Part shown: positions 2,310-18,279 of the stretch, one piece after another | Numbering within the stretch: position 1 is the first letter of the stretch | How the letters are laid out: each line of letters starts with the position of its first letter | DNA from: Escherichia phage vB_EcoP_LNA5 | Direction: 5' to 3' (one strand) | DNA length: 39,091 nt | Sequence record: MZ311861.1 | Made by a program: the position numbers and the translations under genes | Notes under the pieces: generated by a model | The model's database searches: none | Seen by the model: only the letters and a program-made list of their open reading frames with translations | Told to the model about the DNA's origin: nothing

Positions 2310-4480
2310 TAGTGACACTCCTTCCACGTTGGTCCAATCTTACCTTCGGTATCAAGGACACATTTAAAATTATAGAACTCACCCACCTTACGCATAGCAA
2401 GTTGAGCAATCTTGACGACTTCTTCGGCAATCTCCTGAGTACGACACGCAATCTGCAATTCATCATGGACCCATGCCATGTACGCAAAGTCTCCTTCCCA
2501 GCCGTGGACATACCCGGCCTCTTCGAGCATACGTTCAGTCTCGACAATCCAGTGCTTACAGACTACCGCACCATCGCCTTGAAGTAATGCGTTCAGTGCT
2601 GAGTGTGGAGACCGGATGTGGATACGGCGACCATCAAGTCCACGCAACCAACGGCGTTTCCACTTAACGATGTTCTCACCATCTACCCACTTAGAGTCTG
2701 AGATTAACGTATTACTCACAGCTTCCCTGAGGTCCTTGATGGCTGGTGTACCCTCAATGAATTTCTTCATGAGAGCCGAACCTTCCTTCTTACCACCTCC
2801 GACTATCAGTCCAATCTTAGCGGCCCCTGCACCATACAGGAACGCATAGATGAACGTCTTAGCGTTGTTACGGAAAGCATCATGGTCGTGGTTCGACTTA
2901 TCGCGTTTGACGTTAGGTGCTAACCCAGCGTTGACTGCGTTGGCCCAGTGGATGTCACCTTCTACCACAGTCTTCGCATAGGCACCACCATCAAACGGAG
3001 CTGCTCGGTTCCCCAGACAACGAAGCTCAAGACCTGAAGCATCCACACCCACTTGAATCCAAGGGTCTGGCTTACCATCCGTCTTGTTCCAAGCTGCACC
3101 GAAAGCACCACGGCAAATCTCACCATACGGAGCACCGTTAGCAGGGACCTGAGCCATGTTTGGTGAACTATGGGTCGCACGTCCGGTTACTGCACCGCAT
3201 GGGTTGATTGAACCGTGCATACGTCCGTCTGGACCTACAAGTTTCAACCATGCGTTCTTACCTTCAGCCGCCTGACCGATGCGCTTCTGGACTACCAGAT
3301 ACTCACGTACCAGCTCTACGCAAGCCTGAGCCTCTGCGTCTGGTAACTTAACGTGTTCTAACGTCTCGTCATCGACTACAGGTTTCCCGGTTTCAGTGAA
3401 GTCCACAGGCTCCCAGCCACGCTCCATCAAGACTTTCGCTAAGTGGTCTCCGCTTCCCGGATTAAACTCAACGTAAGTGATAGGTGTGAACGGTGCTCCC
3501 TCCATCGTATCTCGCGTATCACGCTCACAAGGTTCAAGACCTAAGCGTTGAGCTTTGTTCTTCGGCTTCTTAAAGATGCCACCGACCTTAGGATACACGA
3601 CTCGTGGATACTTCGGAAGGTCCTTGCCTGTCCGTGGATGCCTGAAGAACTCCTTACCACCCTTCGGTGCATACCAGCTACCGAAAGTCGAACGCAGCTT
3701 GTCCAGCAGCTCTGCACGTTTGACGGTGAGTTCACGATATAAGCCTTCGACCATCTCGGTGTTCATCGGATAGCCGTTACGTTCCATCTTCGCACAGGTC
3801 CACGCAGCATCATGTTCCAGACGCAACGCATAAATCTGGTCGAAAGCGAACTGTTCAGACTGGAAGTAATACTTGTCAGTCAGGAACTTCTTGAACAACG
3901 CCAGTGTGACCACAACGTCTTGAACGTTATAGTCCAGCATCTCCTGAGACGGGAACAACCATTCGTCCCCAGTCTTATATTCGATACCTTCAGCCTTGCA
4001 TTTGGCAACATAATCGTGTTTGTATTCACCTTTCATCTCACCGAGACGATAGCCCCAAGCCTCAAGAGACTGTCGTCCCATCATCTGAGGTGGCAGACGA
4101 CCAGCTTTCACAGCGCCCATGTCTGAGAACTTAATGTTTGGATACATCAAGCGGCCCAGCACCAAGGTATCAATCATCTTGTGTTTCGGGAAGTTAAAAC
4201 GCTTCCCAAAGTACAGACGCTTCAGCTTGTCGATAGCCGGTACGTCATAGTTGATACCGTTGTGGAATACCAGCATACCATCAGGCGATGCGGCAATCTC
4301 TTCCACTTTATGAACATACTCTTTGAAGCCACCGACGATACCGACCATCGGAGCTACCCCATACTTAAGGGTCTCATTCGACTCGGCGTTAATCAGGACC
4401 CCACAGTGAAACTGGGAGACTGTATCAAGGAGACCGTTGGTCTCGATGTCAGAACCCCAGATACTCTTAAGGTCAAACAT
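2309..4480 (-). CDS. DNA polymerase gp5
   Basis: Recalled collinear similarity to T7 DNA polymerase (..DIETNGLL.., ..KTFIYAFLYGAG.., ..YMAWVHDE.., C-terminal ..CH); start set to ATG at 4480 with GGAGGA 8 nt upstream (track start 4516 is GTG). Confidence 0.97.
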   Translation of the reverse strand: MFDLKSIWGSDIETNGLLDTVSQFHCGVLINAESNETLKYGVAPMVGIVGGFKEYVHKVEEIAASPDGMLVFHNGINYDVPAIDKLKRLYFGKRFNFPKHKMIDTLVLGRLMYPNIKFSDMGAVKAGRLPPQMMGRQSLEAWGYRLGEMKGEYKHDYVAKCKAEGIEYKTGDEWLFPSQEMLDYNVQDVVVTLALFKKFLTDKYYFQSEQFAFDQIYALRLEHDAAWTCAKMERNGYPMNTEMVEGLYRELTVKRAELLDKLRSTFGSWYAPKGGKEFFRHPRTGKDLPKYPRVVYPKVGGIFKKPKNKAQRLGLEPCERDTRDTMEGAPFTPITYVEFNPGSGDHLAKVLMERGWEPVDFTETGKPVVDDETLEHVKLPDAEAQACVELVREYLVVQKRIGQAAEGKNAWLKLVGPDGRMHGSINPCGAVTGRATHSSPNMAQVPANGAPYGEICRGAFGAAWNKTDGKPDPWIQVGVDASGLELRCLGNRAAPFDGGAYAKTVVEGDIHWANAVNAGLAPNVKRDKSNHDHDAFRNNAKTFIYAFLYGAGAAKIGLIVGGGKKEGSALMKKFIEGTPAIKDLREAVSNTLISDSKWVDGENIVKWKRRWLRGLDGRRIHIRSPHSALNALLQGDGAVVCKHWIVETERMLEEAGYVHGWEGDFAYMAWVHDELQIACRTQEIAEEVVKIAQLAMRKVGEFYNFKCVLDTEGKIGPTWKECH

Positions 4481-6474: not shown

Positions 6475-6553
6475 TGGCGTCTCCACGGGGATTCGAACCC
6501 TAATCGCAATAGGCCATCACGACCCGCCGCTCTACCGTTTGAGCTATGGAGAC
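6475..6553 (-). ncRNA. tRNA-like element (pseudo-tRNA?): canonical acceptor stem, D-arm, T-loop and encoded CCA, but no foldable anticodon arm
   Basis: Minus strand GTCTCCA-TA-GCTCAAACGGTAGAGC-..-TTCGAAT-..-TGGAGAC-G-CCA: perfect 7-bp acceptor stem, D-arm GCTC/GAGC with GG, T-loop TTCGAAT. The 26 nt between the D and T arms do not form a 5-bp stem with a U33/R37 loop by hand folding. Confidence 0.35.
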
Positions 6554-6601: not shown

Positions 6602-6620
6602 CCCTACGGTGATAGTTTAG
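6602..6620 (-). promoter_or_regulatory. variant phage promoter (CACCGTAGG core; phi3.8/4 position)
   Basis: ccctacggtgatagtttag: two substitutions at -4/-3 relative to the window consensus; overlaps the lysozyme stop as other copies overlap upstream gene ends. Confidence 0.45.
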
Positions 6621-11274: not shown

Positions 11275-11448
11275 CTATGAAATACTTCTCTCGGTTGACC
11301 AGAGAGAGTCTTTGCCCTCAGCGTTACGGAAAGCACCCTTGACACCACCGCCACGCTTGGTCTTGTTCAGCTTGCGGCCCTTCGGAATGTAGTCTTCAGT
11401 CTGCTGACGTTCACGGATTCGCTCGAAGTTGATAGTGTTCTGATACAT
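11275..11448 (-). CDS. gp1.1-like small basic protein (57 aa)
   Basis: Hand-translated: MYQNTINFERIRERQQTEDYIPKGRKLNKTKRGGG..; GRKLNKTKR matches recalled T7 gp1.1; AGGAG upstream; below the track cutoff. Confidence 0.65.
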   Translation of the reverse strand: MYQNTINFERIRERQQTEDYIPKGRKLNKTKRGGGVKGAFRNAEGKDSLWSTERSIS

Positions 11449-11478
11449 GGTGTAGCTCCTGATTGAATGAGTTAGGGT

Positions 11479-11520
11479 TAATCATGAAGGCCACGACTTT
11501 GAGTCATGACCTTGAGTCTA
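11479..11520 (-). promoter_or_regulatory. RNase III-like processing hairpin, class A (R1.1 position)
   Basis: TAGACTCAAGGTCATGACTCAAAGTCGTGGCCTTCATGATTAA on the minus strand; lies between the phi1.1-position promoter and gene 1.1, as recalled for T7. Confidence 0.6.
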
Positions 11521-11522
11521 AT

Positions 11523-11540
11523 CCTATAGTGATAGTTTAG
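11523..11540 (-). promoter_or_regulatory. phage RNAP promoter (phi1.1 position)
   Basis: cctatagtgatagtttag exact consensus. Confidence 0.85.
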
Positions 11541-12087: not shown

Positions 12088-14769
12088 TTAAGCGAATGCA
12101 AAGTCTGAAGACAAGATGTCTTCGATATTTAGTTTACCTTTCTTCGGAAGCTCAGGCAACTTGTCGCGCTGACTTTCATGAAGCTGGTATTCAAACTGCT
12201 CGTAGAAGTCAAGCAGCACATCGTTATCGCGGTAAGTCTCTACCATCGTCTCACGGACTCCACGGAACAGATACTCAGCGTCAGCCGGGATGGTCCCGAA
12301 GCTATCGTGAATCACTGCGAATGACATCACGCCATACTTTCGGTTAGTGTGGACTACAGTCTTGCGGAGGTGGCTACCATCTTGTGAGTGGACGAAGTTC
12401 GGGCTAATGCCTGACTCCTGCTTGTGCTTGTCCAGCTCTTTCTTCGTGCCTTTGTTGACGGTAGGCTGAAGGTTGAATGACCCTAAGAACATCAGGTTCA
12501 GACGAGTGGTGTCCTTCTTGCGGTATTCCTGCCAGACAGGGAAACCATCAGGTGTGACCCAGTGTACCGGAAGGCAAGGCTTCAGGATTTCTCCAGTCTT
12601 CTTGTCCTTCACCTCAGCAGCCAGCAGCTTGGCAGCACCTTGAAGCCACTTCATCGCGTCAACCGCAGCAACTACTGTCACACTCACAGCTTCCCAAATC
12701 ATCTTTGCCATGAAGCGAGACGCTTGGCTTGGTTCAGTGAACATAGCGCCAGACCCTGAGTCAATCGCTGGCATCACGATGTCCTCGTAAACTTGGTCTG
12801 CGAAGCCGTACTCTTTCGACCCGTATGCCAGAGTCATGACTGAACGCTTAGTGACCTTGCGTGACATACCGTATGTCAGCCACTGACGGGCCAGCTCTCG
12901 TGTCCCCAGCTTGATACGTTCGGTAATCTCACCAGTTTTCTTATCCTCGTGAGTGACCATCTCGTTGTCAGTGCCGTTAATCAGCAGTACTTTAAGCTGC
13001 TCCTCAATGCGGTCAGACACAATGCGGTAGATGTCTTGTACCTTACCGGATGGCGTCAGGTTTACTGCATGTCCACCGATGTGGTCACGAAGCATAGCGC
13101 TGAAGTGCTGAATCCCAGAGCAGGACCCATCGAACGCTATCGGCAGCGAGCAGGAGTAAGACAAGCCGTGGTGCATTACGCCAGCATACTCGAAGCAGAA
13201 CGCTAGGAAGCAGAACGGAGAGTCTAACTTGCCCCACCACTCAATGCTATCCATCGGTGCCTTGGCAGCAGCCATGATGTTGTCGTGGTTATCTTCCACC
13301 CACTTGATACGCTCCTCGAAGGTGACTTTATCGACACCCGCGCAGTTTGCACCGTGGACCTTCAGCCATTTGAAACCATCAGCACCAATAGGCTTACCGA
13401 CTGCCAGAGTCAGAAGACCCTTTTGCATGTCGTTACCCTGAGGGTTGAACATCGGCACAGCGTAGACGCGACCGCGCCAGTCCATGTTATACGGGAACCA
13501 GATGGCCTTGAACTGAGAGAACTTGTTCGCTTGGTTGACGATAAAGCTCAGTGACAATCTTCGTGACTGTCTGGCCTTCTCGCGGCGATAGATACCAGCA
13601 GCAGCCTTCTTCCATGCCTTGAGTTCTTCTTCAGTCTCACCCGCATAGTCCTCAGGCTTCAGCGGTTCCATCTGAGGGAGGTCATCAATAGGCGTGTTGT
13701 TCAGCTTCTCGACCTTGTTCACCACGTCCAATACCTTCTTGTTCACTTTCCAAGGTGTATTCTGGATGATATTCACAGCGTCATAGACTTCAGGCATGTA
13801 TACGTCTTCATAACGTGCTACCGCAGACTTAGACCCTAAGCGAATCAATGGTAACGGTCTGCGACCTTTGGCCCAGTACCCACCACCTACGACACCAGTC
13901 CACGGCTTAGGTGGAACGACGCAAGGCTGGTAGACTGGGGCGATACCCGCAAGGCTGAATCCTCGTTGTGCCATCTTCTTGACCCAGAAGTCTGACAGGT
14001 GGACCATCTCTACGTCAGCCGCTGCATTACCAGCACCGTACCGCTTAAGCTCGACCAGTTGTGTTGACTGGATGACAATCTCGAGCATCTTGATGCCAAC
14101 GTGGACGGCCTCTGTAGGACTCCAAGTCCCCCACGCATCTTCCAGTTGGCCTTGCTCCAGCATGGACGCCTCGACCGCTTGCATGTAGGCTTTCTTGTAT
14201 GACGCCCCGGCCCGCTTATTCAGGTTATCAGCTATCGCCTTCTTGAAGTGCTCTTTCTCTTTGTCACGGATGCGACCGAAGCGGATTTCGTCCTCAAGTG
14301 TGCGACCTATCGCTGAGGCCATAGGTGTAATCGGGATCCCTTCAGGCTTGACCAGCTTGGAGAGTATGACCTTCAGTACGATAACCGCAGCAGACTCACA
14401 GGAGATGCGCAGAGATCGTTCCTTTACGGCCTTCTCTTCAGTGCTCAACATGGTGAACGCTACACTCGGACGAGAGGTTGACAGCTTCCCGTCTTGGCCT
14501 TCGTGCCACTCCCTGACGGCTTGCGCAATCTTAGGGACCAGAGTCTGCATCAAAGGCTTGGCGACCTGATTGTCTGCCAGTTCCCCGCGCTCGGTCTGGC
14601 GCTCAAGGTTCTTGATGAAACGTCGCTCGCCTTCTGTATATGCCTCATGCTCAAGCTGAAGCTGTTTGACTGCAAGGTCTTGCCCGTAGTGGTCGGCCAG
14701 CAGGTTAAACGGCTCAATGGCGTTCGACACATCAGAGAAGTCGTGTTTGTCAATAGAGATGACGCTCAT
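12088..14769 (-). CDS. single-subunit DNA-directed RNA polymerase gp1
   Basis: 893-aa ORF collinear with recalled T7 RNA polymerase (..IPFNTLADHYG.., ..WFPYNMDWRGRVYAV.MFNPQGNDM.KGLLTLA.GKPIG.., ..HDSFGTIPADA.., C-terminal ..SDFAFA). Specificity-loop region reads ..QPTVNKGTKKELDKHKQESG.. versus recalled T7 ..QPTINTNKDSEIDAHKQESG... Confidence 0.98.
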   Translation of the reverse strand: MSVISIDKHDFSDVSNAIEPFNLLADHYGQDLAVKQLQLEHEAYTEGERRFIKNLERQTERGELADNQVAKPLMQTLVPKIAQAVREWHEGQDGKLSTSRPSVAFTMLSTEEKAVKERSLRISCESAAVIVLKVILSKLVKPEGIPITPMASAIGRTLEDEIRFGRIRDKEKEHFKKAIADNLNKRAGASYKKAYMQAVEASMLEQGQLEDAWGTWSPTEAVHVGIKMLEIVIQSTQLVELKRYGAGNAAADVEMVHLSDFWVKKMAQRGFSLAGIAPVYQPCVVPPKPWTGVVGGGYWAKGRRPLPLIRLGSKSAVARYEDVYMPEVYDAVNIIQNTPWKVNKKVLDVVNKVEKLNNTPIDDLPQMEPLKPEDYAGETEEELKAWKKAAAGIYRREKARQSRRLSLSFIVNQANKFSQFKAIWFPYNMDWRGRVYAVPMFNPQGNDMQKGLLTLAVGKPIGADGFKWLKVHGANCAGVDKVTFEERIKWVEDNHDNIMAAAKAPMDSIEWWGKLDSPFCFLAFCFEYAGVMHHGLSYSCSLPIAFDGSCSGIQHFSAMLRDHIGGHAVNLTPSGKVQDIYRIVSDRIEEQLKVLLINGTDNEMVTHEDKKTGEITERIKLGTRELARQWLTYGMSRKVTKRSVMTLAYGSKEYGFADQVYEDIVMPAIDSGSGAMFTEPSQASRFMAKMIWEAVSVTVVAAVDAMKWLQGAAKLLAAEVKDKKTGEILKPCLPVHWVTPDGFPVWQEYRKKDTTRLNLMFLGSFNLQPTVNKGTKKELDKHKQESGISPNFVHSQDGSHLRKTVVHTNRKYGVMSFAVIHDSFGTIPADAEYLFRGVRETMVETYRDNDVLLDFYEQFEYQLHESQRDKLPELPKKGKLNIEDILSSDFAFA

Positions 14770-14789
14770 ACTTAAAGTCCTTGTTATTA

Positions 14790-14830
14790 GTCTTTCACTT
14801 AAAGTCTCTTTGGTCTTTCACTTGGAGTCT
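14790..14830 (-). repeat. two 18-bp direct repeats in the RNAP 5' leader
   Basis: gtctttcacttaaagtct (14790..14807) and gtctttcacttggagtct (14813..14830), 16/18 identical, between the upstream phage promoter and the RNAP start. Confidence 0.6.
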
Positions 14831-14842
14831 TAGACCTTTAGT

Positions 14843-14860
14843 CCTATAGTGATAGTTAAG
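14843..14860 (-). promoter_or_regulatory. phage RNAP promoter immediately upstream of the RNAP gene
   Basis: cctatagtgatagttaag; about 75 bp upstream of the gene 1 ATG. Confidence 0.8.
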
Positions 14861-14866
14861 TCAGAA

Positions 14867-15193
14867 TCACTTGCATATCAGTGGGTTAGCGTGAAGATGA
14901 CTGAAGTCACCATGAGTCGTGTGCTTGATGGTTGACCGTTGGTCTATCGCCTTCCAGCCTGAGACTAAAAGTTTACCATCGTCAGTGATTGGTCGTCCAC
15001 CATACACCAGACACATCAGCTCGGACTTATGTCCCTCAGCCCGGAGTCTTGCTTGCAGTACCCGGTCCCGCTCCTGCTGTTGACGTGCGGAGTGACTTGA
15101 CGTTCCGTGACGATACCCGGTAGCCAGTAGGCTTAACATTTGCATGTCTGCGTCCATAGAGTGTACCAGATTAATCCCGTATGACTTGTTCAT
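14867..15193 (-). CDS. hypothetical early protein (108 aa)
   Basis: ATG overlaps the upstream ORF stop (TAATG); GGGAG upstream; no motif recognised; occupies the position where T7 has gene 0.7, but is not kinase-like. Confidence 0.55.
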   Translation of the reverse strand: MNKSYGINLVHSMDADMQMLSLLATGYRHGTSSHSARQQQERDRVLQARLRAEGHKSELMCLVYGGRPITDDGKLLVSGWKAIDQRSTIKHTTHGDFSHLHANPLICK

Positions 15194-17088: not shown

Positions 17089-17118
17089 ATATTACTTTAA
17101 GTCGTTACTGCCTGTCAA
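17089..17118 (-). promoter_or_regulatory. host sigma70-type early promoter
   Basis: Minus strand TTGACA-GGCAGTAACGACTTAAAG-TAATAT (18-bp spacer); resembles the recalled T7 A3 promoter; first gene follows about 190 bp downstream. Confidence 0.6.
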
Positions 17119-17370
17119 CTACTTTCTGTCGGTTGCCTGTTGTTCGTATGTCTTACAGGCTGACTACTTAACCGGACCGGACCGGCGTCTTCACTATCCG
17201 GTTGTTGCCGTGTCGTGTTGACGGAAGCTATTAGGCCATAGTCTGGACCTATAGTCAATAGGTAATTTGAAATAATATTGATTAAGCTATCGTCGGCCCC
17301 ATGGTGTAAGAGGATATAGTCTTTGACTAACATGTCTTAGACCTTAAGTCTATAGCCTTGTGTCTATTAA

Positions 17371-17491
17371 CTGTAGGTCTATGACTGTAGGTGTTGGTGT
17401 CTTATGGTTGAGACTGTAGGTTAGTGAGACTGTAGGTTATGACTTATGGTTGTGAGAGGTAGGCTGTGACCTATGGTTGTGACTTATGGTT
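17371..17491. repeat. array of short direct repeats in the genome-terminal region
   Basis: Plus-strand (g)actgtaggt four times and (ga)cttatggtt four times; on the phage strand ACCTACAGT / AACCATAAG, resembling the recalled T7 CCTAAAG repeats near the terminal repetition. Confidence 0.6.
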
Positions 17492-18260: not shown

Positions 18261-18279
18261 CCCTATAGTGATAGTTAAG
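18261..18279 (-). promoter_or_regulatory. phage RNAP promoter (phi-OR position)
   Basis: ccctatagtgatagttaag, about 95 bp past the large terminase stop. Confidence 0.8.

Follow-up and report, generated by a model that had tools for sequence, protein, structure and literature searches.

The RNA polymerase gene (gene 1) of this Escherichia phage is directly preceded by a sequence, hereinafter phi1, that is likely to be a working promoter of the very polymerase that the gene encodes, furnished with a leader of its own. This layout is genuine, but all of the genus to which the phage belongs has it as standard, and it constitutes an incremental refinement rather than a new principle. Already known are the promoter as an annotation and the idea of feedback from other phages. 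New are the evidence from co-variation of the promoter with the polymerase, the conservation of the leader together with its affinity to the leader of T7 phi1.1B, and a reciprocal pattern of phages with phi1 but no phiOL as against phages with phiOL but no phi1, the latter having R1 in its place where representatives were read.

Genomic Context of Gene 1

The window (i.e., the whole stretch of DNA that was analysed, 39,091 bp) is a complete T7-like genome, which is given in reverse complement and circular permutation and has its genes on the minus strand. The phage is K1F-like and belongs to the genus Kayfunavirus, its gene 1 region being 98% identical to those of Escherichia phage Peacock, LM33_P1 and others. 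The features in and around this region are the following:

17089..17118, minus strand: strong sigma-70-type early promoter (TTGACA-18-TAATAT) from the promoter scan, the putative source of the earliest gene 1 transcripts, made by the host
14867..15193, minus strand: ORF of 108 aa, the last of the early ones ahead of gene 1, in the position of the ORF annotated as gp0.38 in PE3-1
14839..14861, minus strand: candidate phage-RNAP promoter phi1 (-17..+6), ACTTAACTATCACTATAGGACTA, a full match to the genome's own multi-copy consensus
14770..14844, minus strand: predicted 5′ leader, 75 nt, of transcripts from phi1, contained in the early transcript of the host RNAP as well
14778..14782, minus strand: Shine-Dalgarno sequence AAGGA, 8 nt before the ATG, invariant in all aligned Kayfunavirus leaders
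12088..14769, minus strand: gene 1, single-subunit RNA polymerase, 893 aa, 98–99% identical to Kayfunavirus RNAPs and 62.6% to that of T7
11275..11535, minus strand: next phage promoter (core 11535..11523), R1.1-type hairpin sequence and true gene 1.1 homologue
11275-11448, minus strand: the true gene 1.1 homologue itself, 57 aa, containing KGRKLNKTKR, which it has in common with T7 gp1.1

On the minus strand the sequence reads into gene 1 as ...TGA ttctg ACTTAACTATCACTATAGGACTA AAGGTCTAAGACTCCAAGTGAAAGACCAAAGAGACTTTAAGTGAAAGACTAATAACAAGGACTTTAAGT ATG, such that phi1 is intergenic and oriented as the genes are, beginning 5 nt past the stop codon of the 108-aa early ORF (TGA, 14869..14867). Alignment with T7-type promoters places the +1 on the G at 14844, and with the ATG of gene 1 at 14769..14767 of the minus strand the leader is exactly 75 nt long. 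The sequence-only reading had put a full-consensus phage promoter about 75 bp before gene 1, and its coordinates are right. The scan further recovered sigma-70-type promoters near 17118 and ~17262, and on the coding strand between these and gene 1 it found no terminator-like site; hence, the host polymerase can make the first gene 1 mRNA. On the other side of gene 1, the 57-aa gene 1.1 homologue falls under the 60-aa threshold of the ORF listing; it is preceded by a single promoter and the R1.1-type hairpin sequence, without the A-rich leader of its T7 counterpart. The ORF right after gene 1, in the position that PE3-1 labels gp1.1, is unrelated to T7 gp1.1.

Sequence and Position of phi1

With an extent of about 23 bp, a CACTATAGG-type core and a G at +1, phi1 has the makeup of a promoter of the T7-group single-subunit-RNAP kind, and its 13-nt core is exact. 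This core, CTATCACTATAGG, occurs in 9 exact copies on the minus strand of the window and, when up to two mismatches are allowed, in 12 matches as against 0.84 expected, all but one of the 12 being on the minus strand. All 11 minus-strand sites are in gene orientation and each precedes a gene or gene block. On a PWM of the window's own promoters phi1 scores 33.7 bits, alongside the site at 18263. Its start, GGACTA, groups with the GGA-starting promoters found on the left of the genome, from gene 1 to gene 2.5, and not with the GGGAGA capsid promoter. A terminator scan and folding detected neither a terminator-like site nor a stable hairpin in the 75 nt between phi1 and the ATG. The arrangement is thus that expected of an autoregulated polymerase gene, with the cognate promoter ahead of the gene and no terminator in between.

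We also considered whether the site might be a sigma-70 promoter, its label in PE3-1 naming the host RNAP, and rejected this, the scan of the minus strand having returned no sigma-70 promoter at the position of phi1. In the GenBank record of PE3-1 (L166, KJ748011), the 23-bp phage-type promoter before gene 1 (2874-2896) is labelled ‘host RNAP promoter’. This is probably a mislabel or an analogy with the E. coli promoter ‘C’ of T7, which in the T7 record lies at 3113, just before gene 1 at 3171.

Co-Variation of phi1 with the Polymerase

We fetched 80 loci encoding relatives of the polymerase, derived the promoter motif of each de novo and scored each locus with its own motif. The window and all of the Kayfunavirus and Caroctavirus loci (21/21, defined as those whose RNAP is at least 78% identical to that of the window) display a full-score cognate promoter with its +1 74–92 nt upstream of the gene 1 ATG, and direct reading finds a promoter before gene 1 likewise in K1F, Dev2 and PE3-1. 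These promoters come in three specificities: AACTATCACTATAGG in the K1F type, AACCCTCACTATAGG in two loci close to Cronobacter phage GW1 (L016 and L038) and GGTACACTATAGG in Citrobacter phage CR8 of the genus Caroctavirus (L014). The specificity loop of the polymerase comes in three types as well, namely TRLNLMFLGSFNLQPT (..RLNL..FNLQ..) in the K1F type, TRLDLMFLGTFRLQPT (..RLDL..FRLQ..) in L016 and L038, and TRIKLMFMG-VQYRPT (..RIKL..VQYR..) in CR8. The second of these has the D and R of T3, as found in the T3-like locus, and it is paired with a T3-like CCCT promoter. The specificity region of the promoter (-8 to -12) therefore co-varies with the specificity loop, three promoter types matching three loop types. 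That the position of phi1 is kept while its sequence follows the changing specificity of the enzyme indicates that the site is used by that enzyme. We take this co-variation as strong comparative evidence for use of phi1 by the phage RNAP, and phi1 is very probably functional. As phi1 appears to be in use and neither a terminator nor a hairpin interrupts the leader, the natural reading of the layout is that gene 1 is probably transcribed by its own product in a positive feedback. The sequence-only reading had proposed that a phage promoter here gives autoregulation of the polymerase; the promoter is upheld by its full consensus and its co-variation with RNAP specificity, and the feedback is what the layout suggests.

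The T7-, T3- and K11-like loci present the reciprocal pattern. In none of the 51 do the 600 nt ahead of gene 1 hold a cognate promoter; the closest one is at -616 in the T3-like locus L036. Most have a phiOL-type promoter 2.1–3.4 kb upstream of gene 1, and the representatives that were read have, where phi1 would be, the conserved R1 hairpin sequence (an RNase III site). Conversely, phiOL is absent in Kayfunavirus and CR8, in which just one further promoter precedes gene 1, namely the phiOR-type site ahead of gene 19.5. A few loci outside Kayfunavirus have full-score cognate promoters in the early region, at positions counted from the RNAP start of -616 and -1568 (L036), -971 (L040) and -1329 (L060). 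The phage RNAP may transcribe into gene 1 in more phages than the textbook view of T7 would suggest. For T7 itself, the sequence-only reading stated that gene 1 is transcribed only by the host RNAP. This is roughly right, in that no phage promoter lies beside gene 1; phiOL, at 405 in the T7 record, lies ahead of the whole early region and has the same direction, such that it can in principle be read toward gene 1.

Composition and Conservation of the Leader

The leader has 36% GC and 44% A in a genome of 50% GC, and its GC content is the lowest among the eleven promoter leaders of the window, that of the promoter at 823 coming close with 37%. Folding does not point to structure in the RNA: the minimum free energy has a z-score of +0.66 for the leader alone and -0.17 for the surrounding 251 nt, neither being significant, the consensus fold of seven diverse leaders reaches -2.2 kcal/mol with no compensatory pairs, and the leader matches no Rfam family. 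The search for RNA structure in the repeats that the sequence-only reading had suggested, which covered the leader, the 251-nt context, the seven-sequence consensus and Rfam, came back empty. A riboswitch, an attenuator and an RNase III site are ruled out by the folding, the consensus fold and Rfam. An R1-type RNase III site before gene 1 was rejected in particular on the 251-nt fold and on the absence of the T7-, T3- or K11-like hairpin sequence.

Despite this, the sequence is remarkably stable between relatives. The leader is 89–99% identical to those of L020 (74/75), L016 (68/76) and L038 (70/76), as against 54–58% at the four-fold degenerate sites of gene 1 in the same three loci, and in these comparisons it is the best conserved of five promoter leaders. 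It is under what comparison of these sequences indicates to be clear purifying selection, although recombination of the segment between phages could account in part for the high conservation. In CR8 the leader is 93 nt long and 61% identical to that of the window. Translation signals occupy the downstream end of the gene 1 leader in the window, where the final 15 nt, AGGACTTTAAGTATG, match the T7 gene 1.1 initiation region without a difference. The heptamer ACUUUAA occurs twice in this leader, with one copy between the Shine-Dalgarno sequence and the ATG; it resembles but does not equal the epsilon enhancer of T7 gene 10, whose exact 9-nt element UUAACUUUA is, by reading, absent upstream of the Shine-Dalgarno sequence.

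The promoter and leader vary in a sub-lineage typified by Dev2 (L167, 2389-2476; also L010, L011, L012, L018 and L019). About 35 Dev2-type records have a stable T-to-A change at -2 (CACTAAAGG) that is confined to the gene 1 promoter, and the Dev2-type leader (Dev2, L010) is 81 nt long and 76% identical to that of the window. Thus, neither promoter strength nor leader sequence is fixed, and the -2 change suggests that promoter strength is tuned. In the Dev2-type leader a GTG with an AGGA Shine-Dalgarno sequence lies 15 codons upstream of the gene 1 ATG, in frame with it and with no stop codon in between; hence, a short N-terminal extension of the polymerase is possible in this type. Mini-ORFs in the leader (in the K1F type, GTG AAA GAC TAA from inside the second repeat copy) were discarded as a general feature, as the reading frame differs between leader types: in the Dev2 type, the GTG matching the start of the K1F-type mini-ORF runs in frame into gene 1.

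Repeats in the Leader

The leader contains a small family of direct repeats:

14826..14843, minus strand: weak copy (72%), GACTAAAGGTCTAAGACT, beginning at +2 of the predicted transcript
14810..14830, minus strand: copy A, 21 nt, AGACTCCAAGTGAAAGACCAA, 86% identical to copy B
14787..14807, minus strand: copy B, 21 nt, AGACTTTAAGTGAAAGACTAA, the reference copy of the family
14762..14779, minus strand: weak copy (72%), GACTTTAAGTATGAGCGT, forming the translation initiation region and including the gene 1 ATG

In their best register, copies A and B are identical at 18 of 21 positions, start 23 nt apart and share an exact 11-nt core, AAGTGAAAGAC (minus strand), of which there is no further copy in the genome; taken as 18-nt copies (14789-14806 and 14812-14829) they agree at 15 of 18. 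The description of two near-identical tandem 18-bp repeats in the sequence-only reading is therefore sound as to the repeats and slightly generous in its wording, with 83–86% identity and a few bases in between. The repeat exceeds chance: in 3000 dinucleotide shuffles of the leader, an exact 11-nt repeat arose 6 times and an 18/21 pair never, and the autocorrelation of the leader peaks at a lag of 23 (z=3.2). Tandem Repeats Finder at a score of at least 30 does not call it, the repeat being short and interrupted.

In L016 and L038 the two copies have diverged from each other. What selection seems to preserve is the overall sequence, and seemingly not the identity between the copies. Copy B also resembles a second version of the translation initiation region (AAGAGACTTTAAGTGA vs AAGGACTTTAAGTATG); a scan of viral contigs with the 16-mer AAGGACTTTAAGTATG gave mostly chance matches in unrelated contigs. 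Each of the three leader types, that of CR8 included, has four to six GAC..AAGT units. A regular 14-nt periodicity, which by eye appears as about six GACTNNAAGTNNAA units and is clearer in the Dev2 type, was not accepted, as the autocorrelation at lag 14 is only z=1.9. Nor is GACTNNAAG a leader-specific site, for it is enriched about four times genome-wide on both strands (32 vs 7.6 expected). Sequences of the GACTCAAGGTC type are found after several promoters, both in the window genome and in T7-like relatives. As regards the proposal in the sequence-only reading that the repeats are a control element, purifying selection on the leader speaks for it, and the lack of RNA structure, the lack of a candidate binding factor and the divergence of the copies in relatives speak against it.

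Proposed Mechanism and Alternatives

We propose that the host RNA polymerase would start at the sigma-70 promoters at ~17.1–17.3 kb and cross the early genes to provide the first gene 1 mRNA, as the layout implies, and that the first polymerase molecules would then start at phi1 (+1 at 14844) and transcribe their own gene along with the genes downstream. Gene 1 would in this manner join the regulon of the phage RNAP, which would provide both positive feedback and transcription that continues after the shut-off of the host enzyme. As the GGACTA start resembles those of the GGA-starting left promoters and not that of the GGGAGA capsid promoter, phi1 may be expected, by analogy with T7 class II promoters, to be of moderate strength and to be damped later, e.g., by phage lysozyme. 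The leader would be a selected, structure-free and A-rich ribosome-loading region, with the repeats as putative degenerate copies of the initiation block GACTTTAAGT(A/G)TG/A. In the weakest step of this scheme, we posit that the repeats most likely promote translation initiation and do not constitute an on/off switch, because they look like copies of the initiation block and because the leader has the T7 gene 1.1 block AGGACTTTAAGTATG and the epsilon-like ACUUUAA.

It may be asked instead whether phi1 and its AT-rich leader are mainly a T7-type replication origin whose transcripts prime DNA synthesis, the cassette having been relocated upstream of gene 1 and the transcription of gene 1 being a side effect or a second function. 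We regard this as unlikely. Replication of T7 starts at phi1.1A/phi1.1B, its primary origin, and a phage promoter is required at each of its origins (PMC8373140; PMC12796468); phiOR and phi6.5 are named as origins besides the primary one (PMC8373140). The sequence in the window has the corresponding succession of a phage promoter and an AT-rich stretch that stands out against the genome and is the most GC-poor of the eleven leaders. The T7 origin is said to take in, beyond the promoters, the AT-rich stretch after phi1.1B, as reportedly found by Saito in 1980 and by Fuller and Richardson in 1985. The best T7 match of the leader is specifically the stretch from phi1.1B to gene 1.1 (z=7.5, equalled in 0/1000 shuffles; z=8.9 for the T7-like locus L026), all other T7 leaders having z≤1.6. 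Further, phiOL, a secondary origin in T7, is missing from these genomes, and the phi1.1 region of the window has one promoter and no AT-rich leader. T7 having an A-rich leader before gene 1.1 and the window before gene 1, the cassette with this leader is differently placed in the two. However, phi1 is single and not tandem as at the primary origin of T7, the leader of the promoter at 823 is nearly as AT-rich, and most of the likeness to T7 comes from the ribosome-binding block, a translation signal: without the last 18 nt it is weak (z=2.4, 38/1000 shuffles). An origin role is in any case compatible with transcription of gene 1. A bolder version, which we hold to be quite improbable, is that the cassette is the relocated phi1.1B origin cassette of T7 and serves in Kayfunavirus and Caroctavirus at once as the primary origin, the leftmost entry of the phage polymerase and the self-amplifying promoter of gene 1, with the repeats setting the balance between these roles. 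If this were true, the start of replication, the takeover of transcription and the dosage of the polymerase would form one coupled switch, wired unlike that of T7.

The conservation of the leader in the absence of structure speaks in turn for the possibility that the repeated 18–21-nt units are RNA or DNA binding sites at which a factor from phage or host would control the feedback loop, be it a translational repressor, the polymerase itself or a host protein of the CsrA or S1 type. The recurrence of the GAC..AAGT units in every leader type is consistent with such an operator, as is the overlap of the last unit with the Shine-Dalgarno sequence and the ATG, which is the usual geometry of translational repression. 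We nevertheless deem it very unlikely: there is no known candidate factor, the best two copies diverge in L016 and L038, the spacing of the units is irregular, as the weak lag-14 signal indicates, and the genome-wide enrichment of GACTNNAAG makes part of the motif a compositional habit of these phages. That the promoter and repeats are merely a neutral relic of recombination or duplication, with no selected role in polymerase expression, is extremely improbable and is disfavoured here. T7-group genomes are indeed mosaic, promoter cassettes are placed differently between genera and most T7-like genera thrive without a promoter at this position; but the specificity of phi1 has changed together with that of the polymerase at least twice while the position was kept, where a relic would have decayed, the leader is conserved far above silent sites, and none of the 218 records found to carry the segment lacks the element.

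Other Features of the Genome

A tRNA-like gene (6475-6553, minus strand) lies between a promoter variant, CTATCACCGTAGG (6615..6603), and the primase/helicase gene; it matches the Rfam tRNA family with 36.7 bits, is called by ARAGORN as tRNA-Thr(CGT) and has an encoded 3′ CCA. To our knowledge, T7-like phages are normally without tRNAs. The tRNA-like stretch is found in only 34/178 related phage records, and in the 12 records listed a tRNA is annotated there in none (0/12). Elsewhere, short tandem repeats with periods of 13–27 and units like ACCTACAGTC and ACCATAAGTC occupy 17362-17491, flanked at one end by the phiOR-type promoter and gene 19.5 and at the opposite end by the early promoters of the host RNAP. 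This block is presumably the terminal-repeat or concatemer-junction zone; the CR8 record has similar repeats annotated at its left end.

Significance and Relation to Known Systems

T7 is the textbook case in which the polymerase gene is strictly early and transcribed by the host. The comparisons above suggest that a whole, heavily sampled genus, that of the K1F-like phages, has a direct feedback promoter in place of this scheme, as does the neighbouring CR8, and that this promoter was kept through at least two changes of specificity. K1F-like phages matter in practice, many being in therapy use and the K1F RNAP and promoter serving as orthogonal parts, and they offer a natural system in which to ask what positive feedback on a single-subunit RNAP gains a lytic phage. 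For engineering, removal or relocation of the ~100-bp segment should alter polymerase dosage.

The genome of K1F, in which the arrangement is present, was sequenced in 2005. Occurrence as a routine matter and prior description in close relatives, which the sequence-only reading had itself counted against its proposal, largely hold true: the arrangement is found in 218 phage records, K1F included, of which 172 are at least 95% identical over the 100-nt segment, and GenBank has a promoter at the position of phi1 in CR8 (‘predicted promoter’) and PE3-1 (‘promoter’). A 2026 paper on Sparklingdew lists, without comment, one promoter repeat at the end of the gene preceding the RNAP gene. We found no literature discussing the consequences of a gene 1 promoter for Kayfunavirus.

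Among characterized systems, the region upstream of gene 1 in T7 has the same position, from the last early gene to gene 1, and phiOL in principle lets the phage RNAP read through to gene 1. In the T7-, T3- and K11-like loci, however, no phage promoter is found at this position and those that were read have an R1-type hairpin sequence instead, in contrast to the window with neither such a hairpin nor phiOL. The phi1.1B region of T7 resembles phi1 in its GGA-starting promoter, its ~80-nt A/T-rich leader, in which there are CTTAAG/ACTTTAAG motifs, and the block AGGACTTTAAGTATG, which is the same in both, at the start codon; it differs in lying downstream of gene 1, serving gene 1.1 and having two tandem promoters, where the window has a single one upstream of gene 1, and outside the ribosome-binding block the likeness in sequence is weak.

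Beyond T7, autoregulation has been proposed for two other phages. In Vibrio phage phiA318 a predicted promoter, phi-A8, lies upstream of the polymerase gene and its authors explicitly suggested autoregulation; however, phi-A8 precedes the kinase gene too and thus does not directly abut the RNAP gene, phiA318 is an SP6/K1E-like relative and the promoter is a prediction only (PMC4099482). In SP6 itself, we found no consensus promoter near the RNAP gene. Pseudomonas phage LUZ100 has a cognate single-subunit-RNAP promoter, likewise named phi1, immediately before the polymerase gene, whose start site was mapped by ONT-cappable-seq and for which positive feedback was proposed, host read-through coming first and self-amplification following (PMC10134795). 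LUZ100 is, however, a distant relative with temperate features, and a MarR-like repressor has been suggested to gate its loop (PMC10134795). The phage in the window differs from it in having the standard T7 gene order on one strand and no repressor or integrase noted, and in having a promoter with a predicted start site. The same circuit logic, a polymerase gene behind its own promoter, has also been built by hand: in the ‘autogene’ reportedly engineered by Dubendorff and Studier in 1991, T7 gene 1 was cloned behind a T7 promoter. That construct is synthetic and resides on plasmids under the control of a repressor and lysozyme, whereas the arrangement described here is natural and genus-wide.
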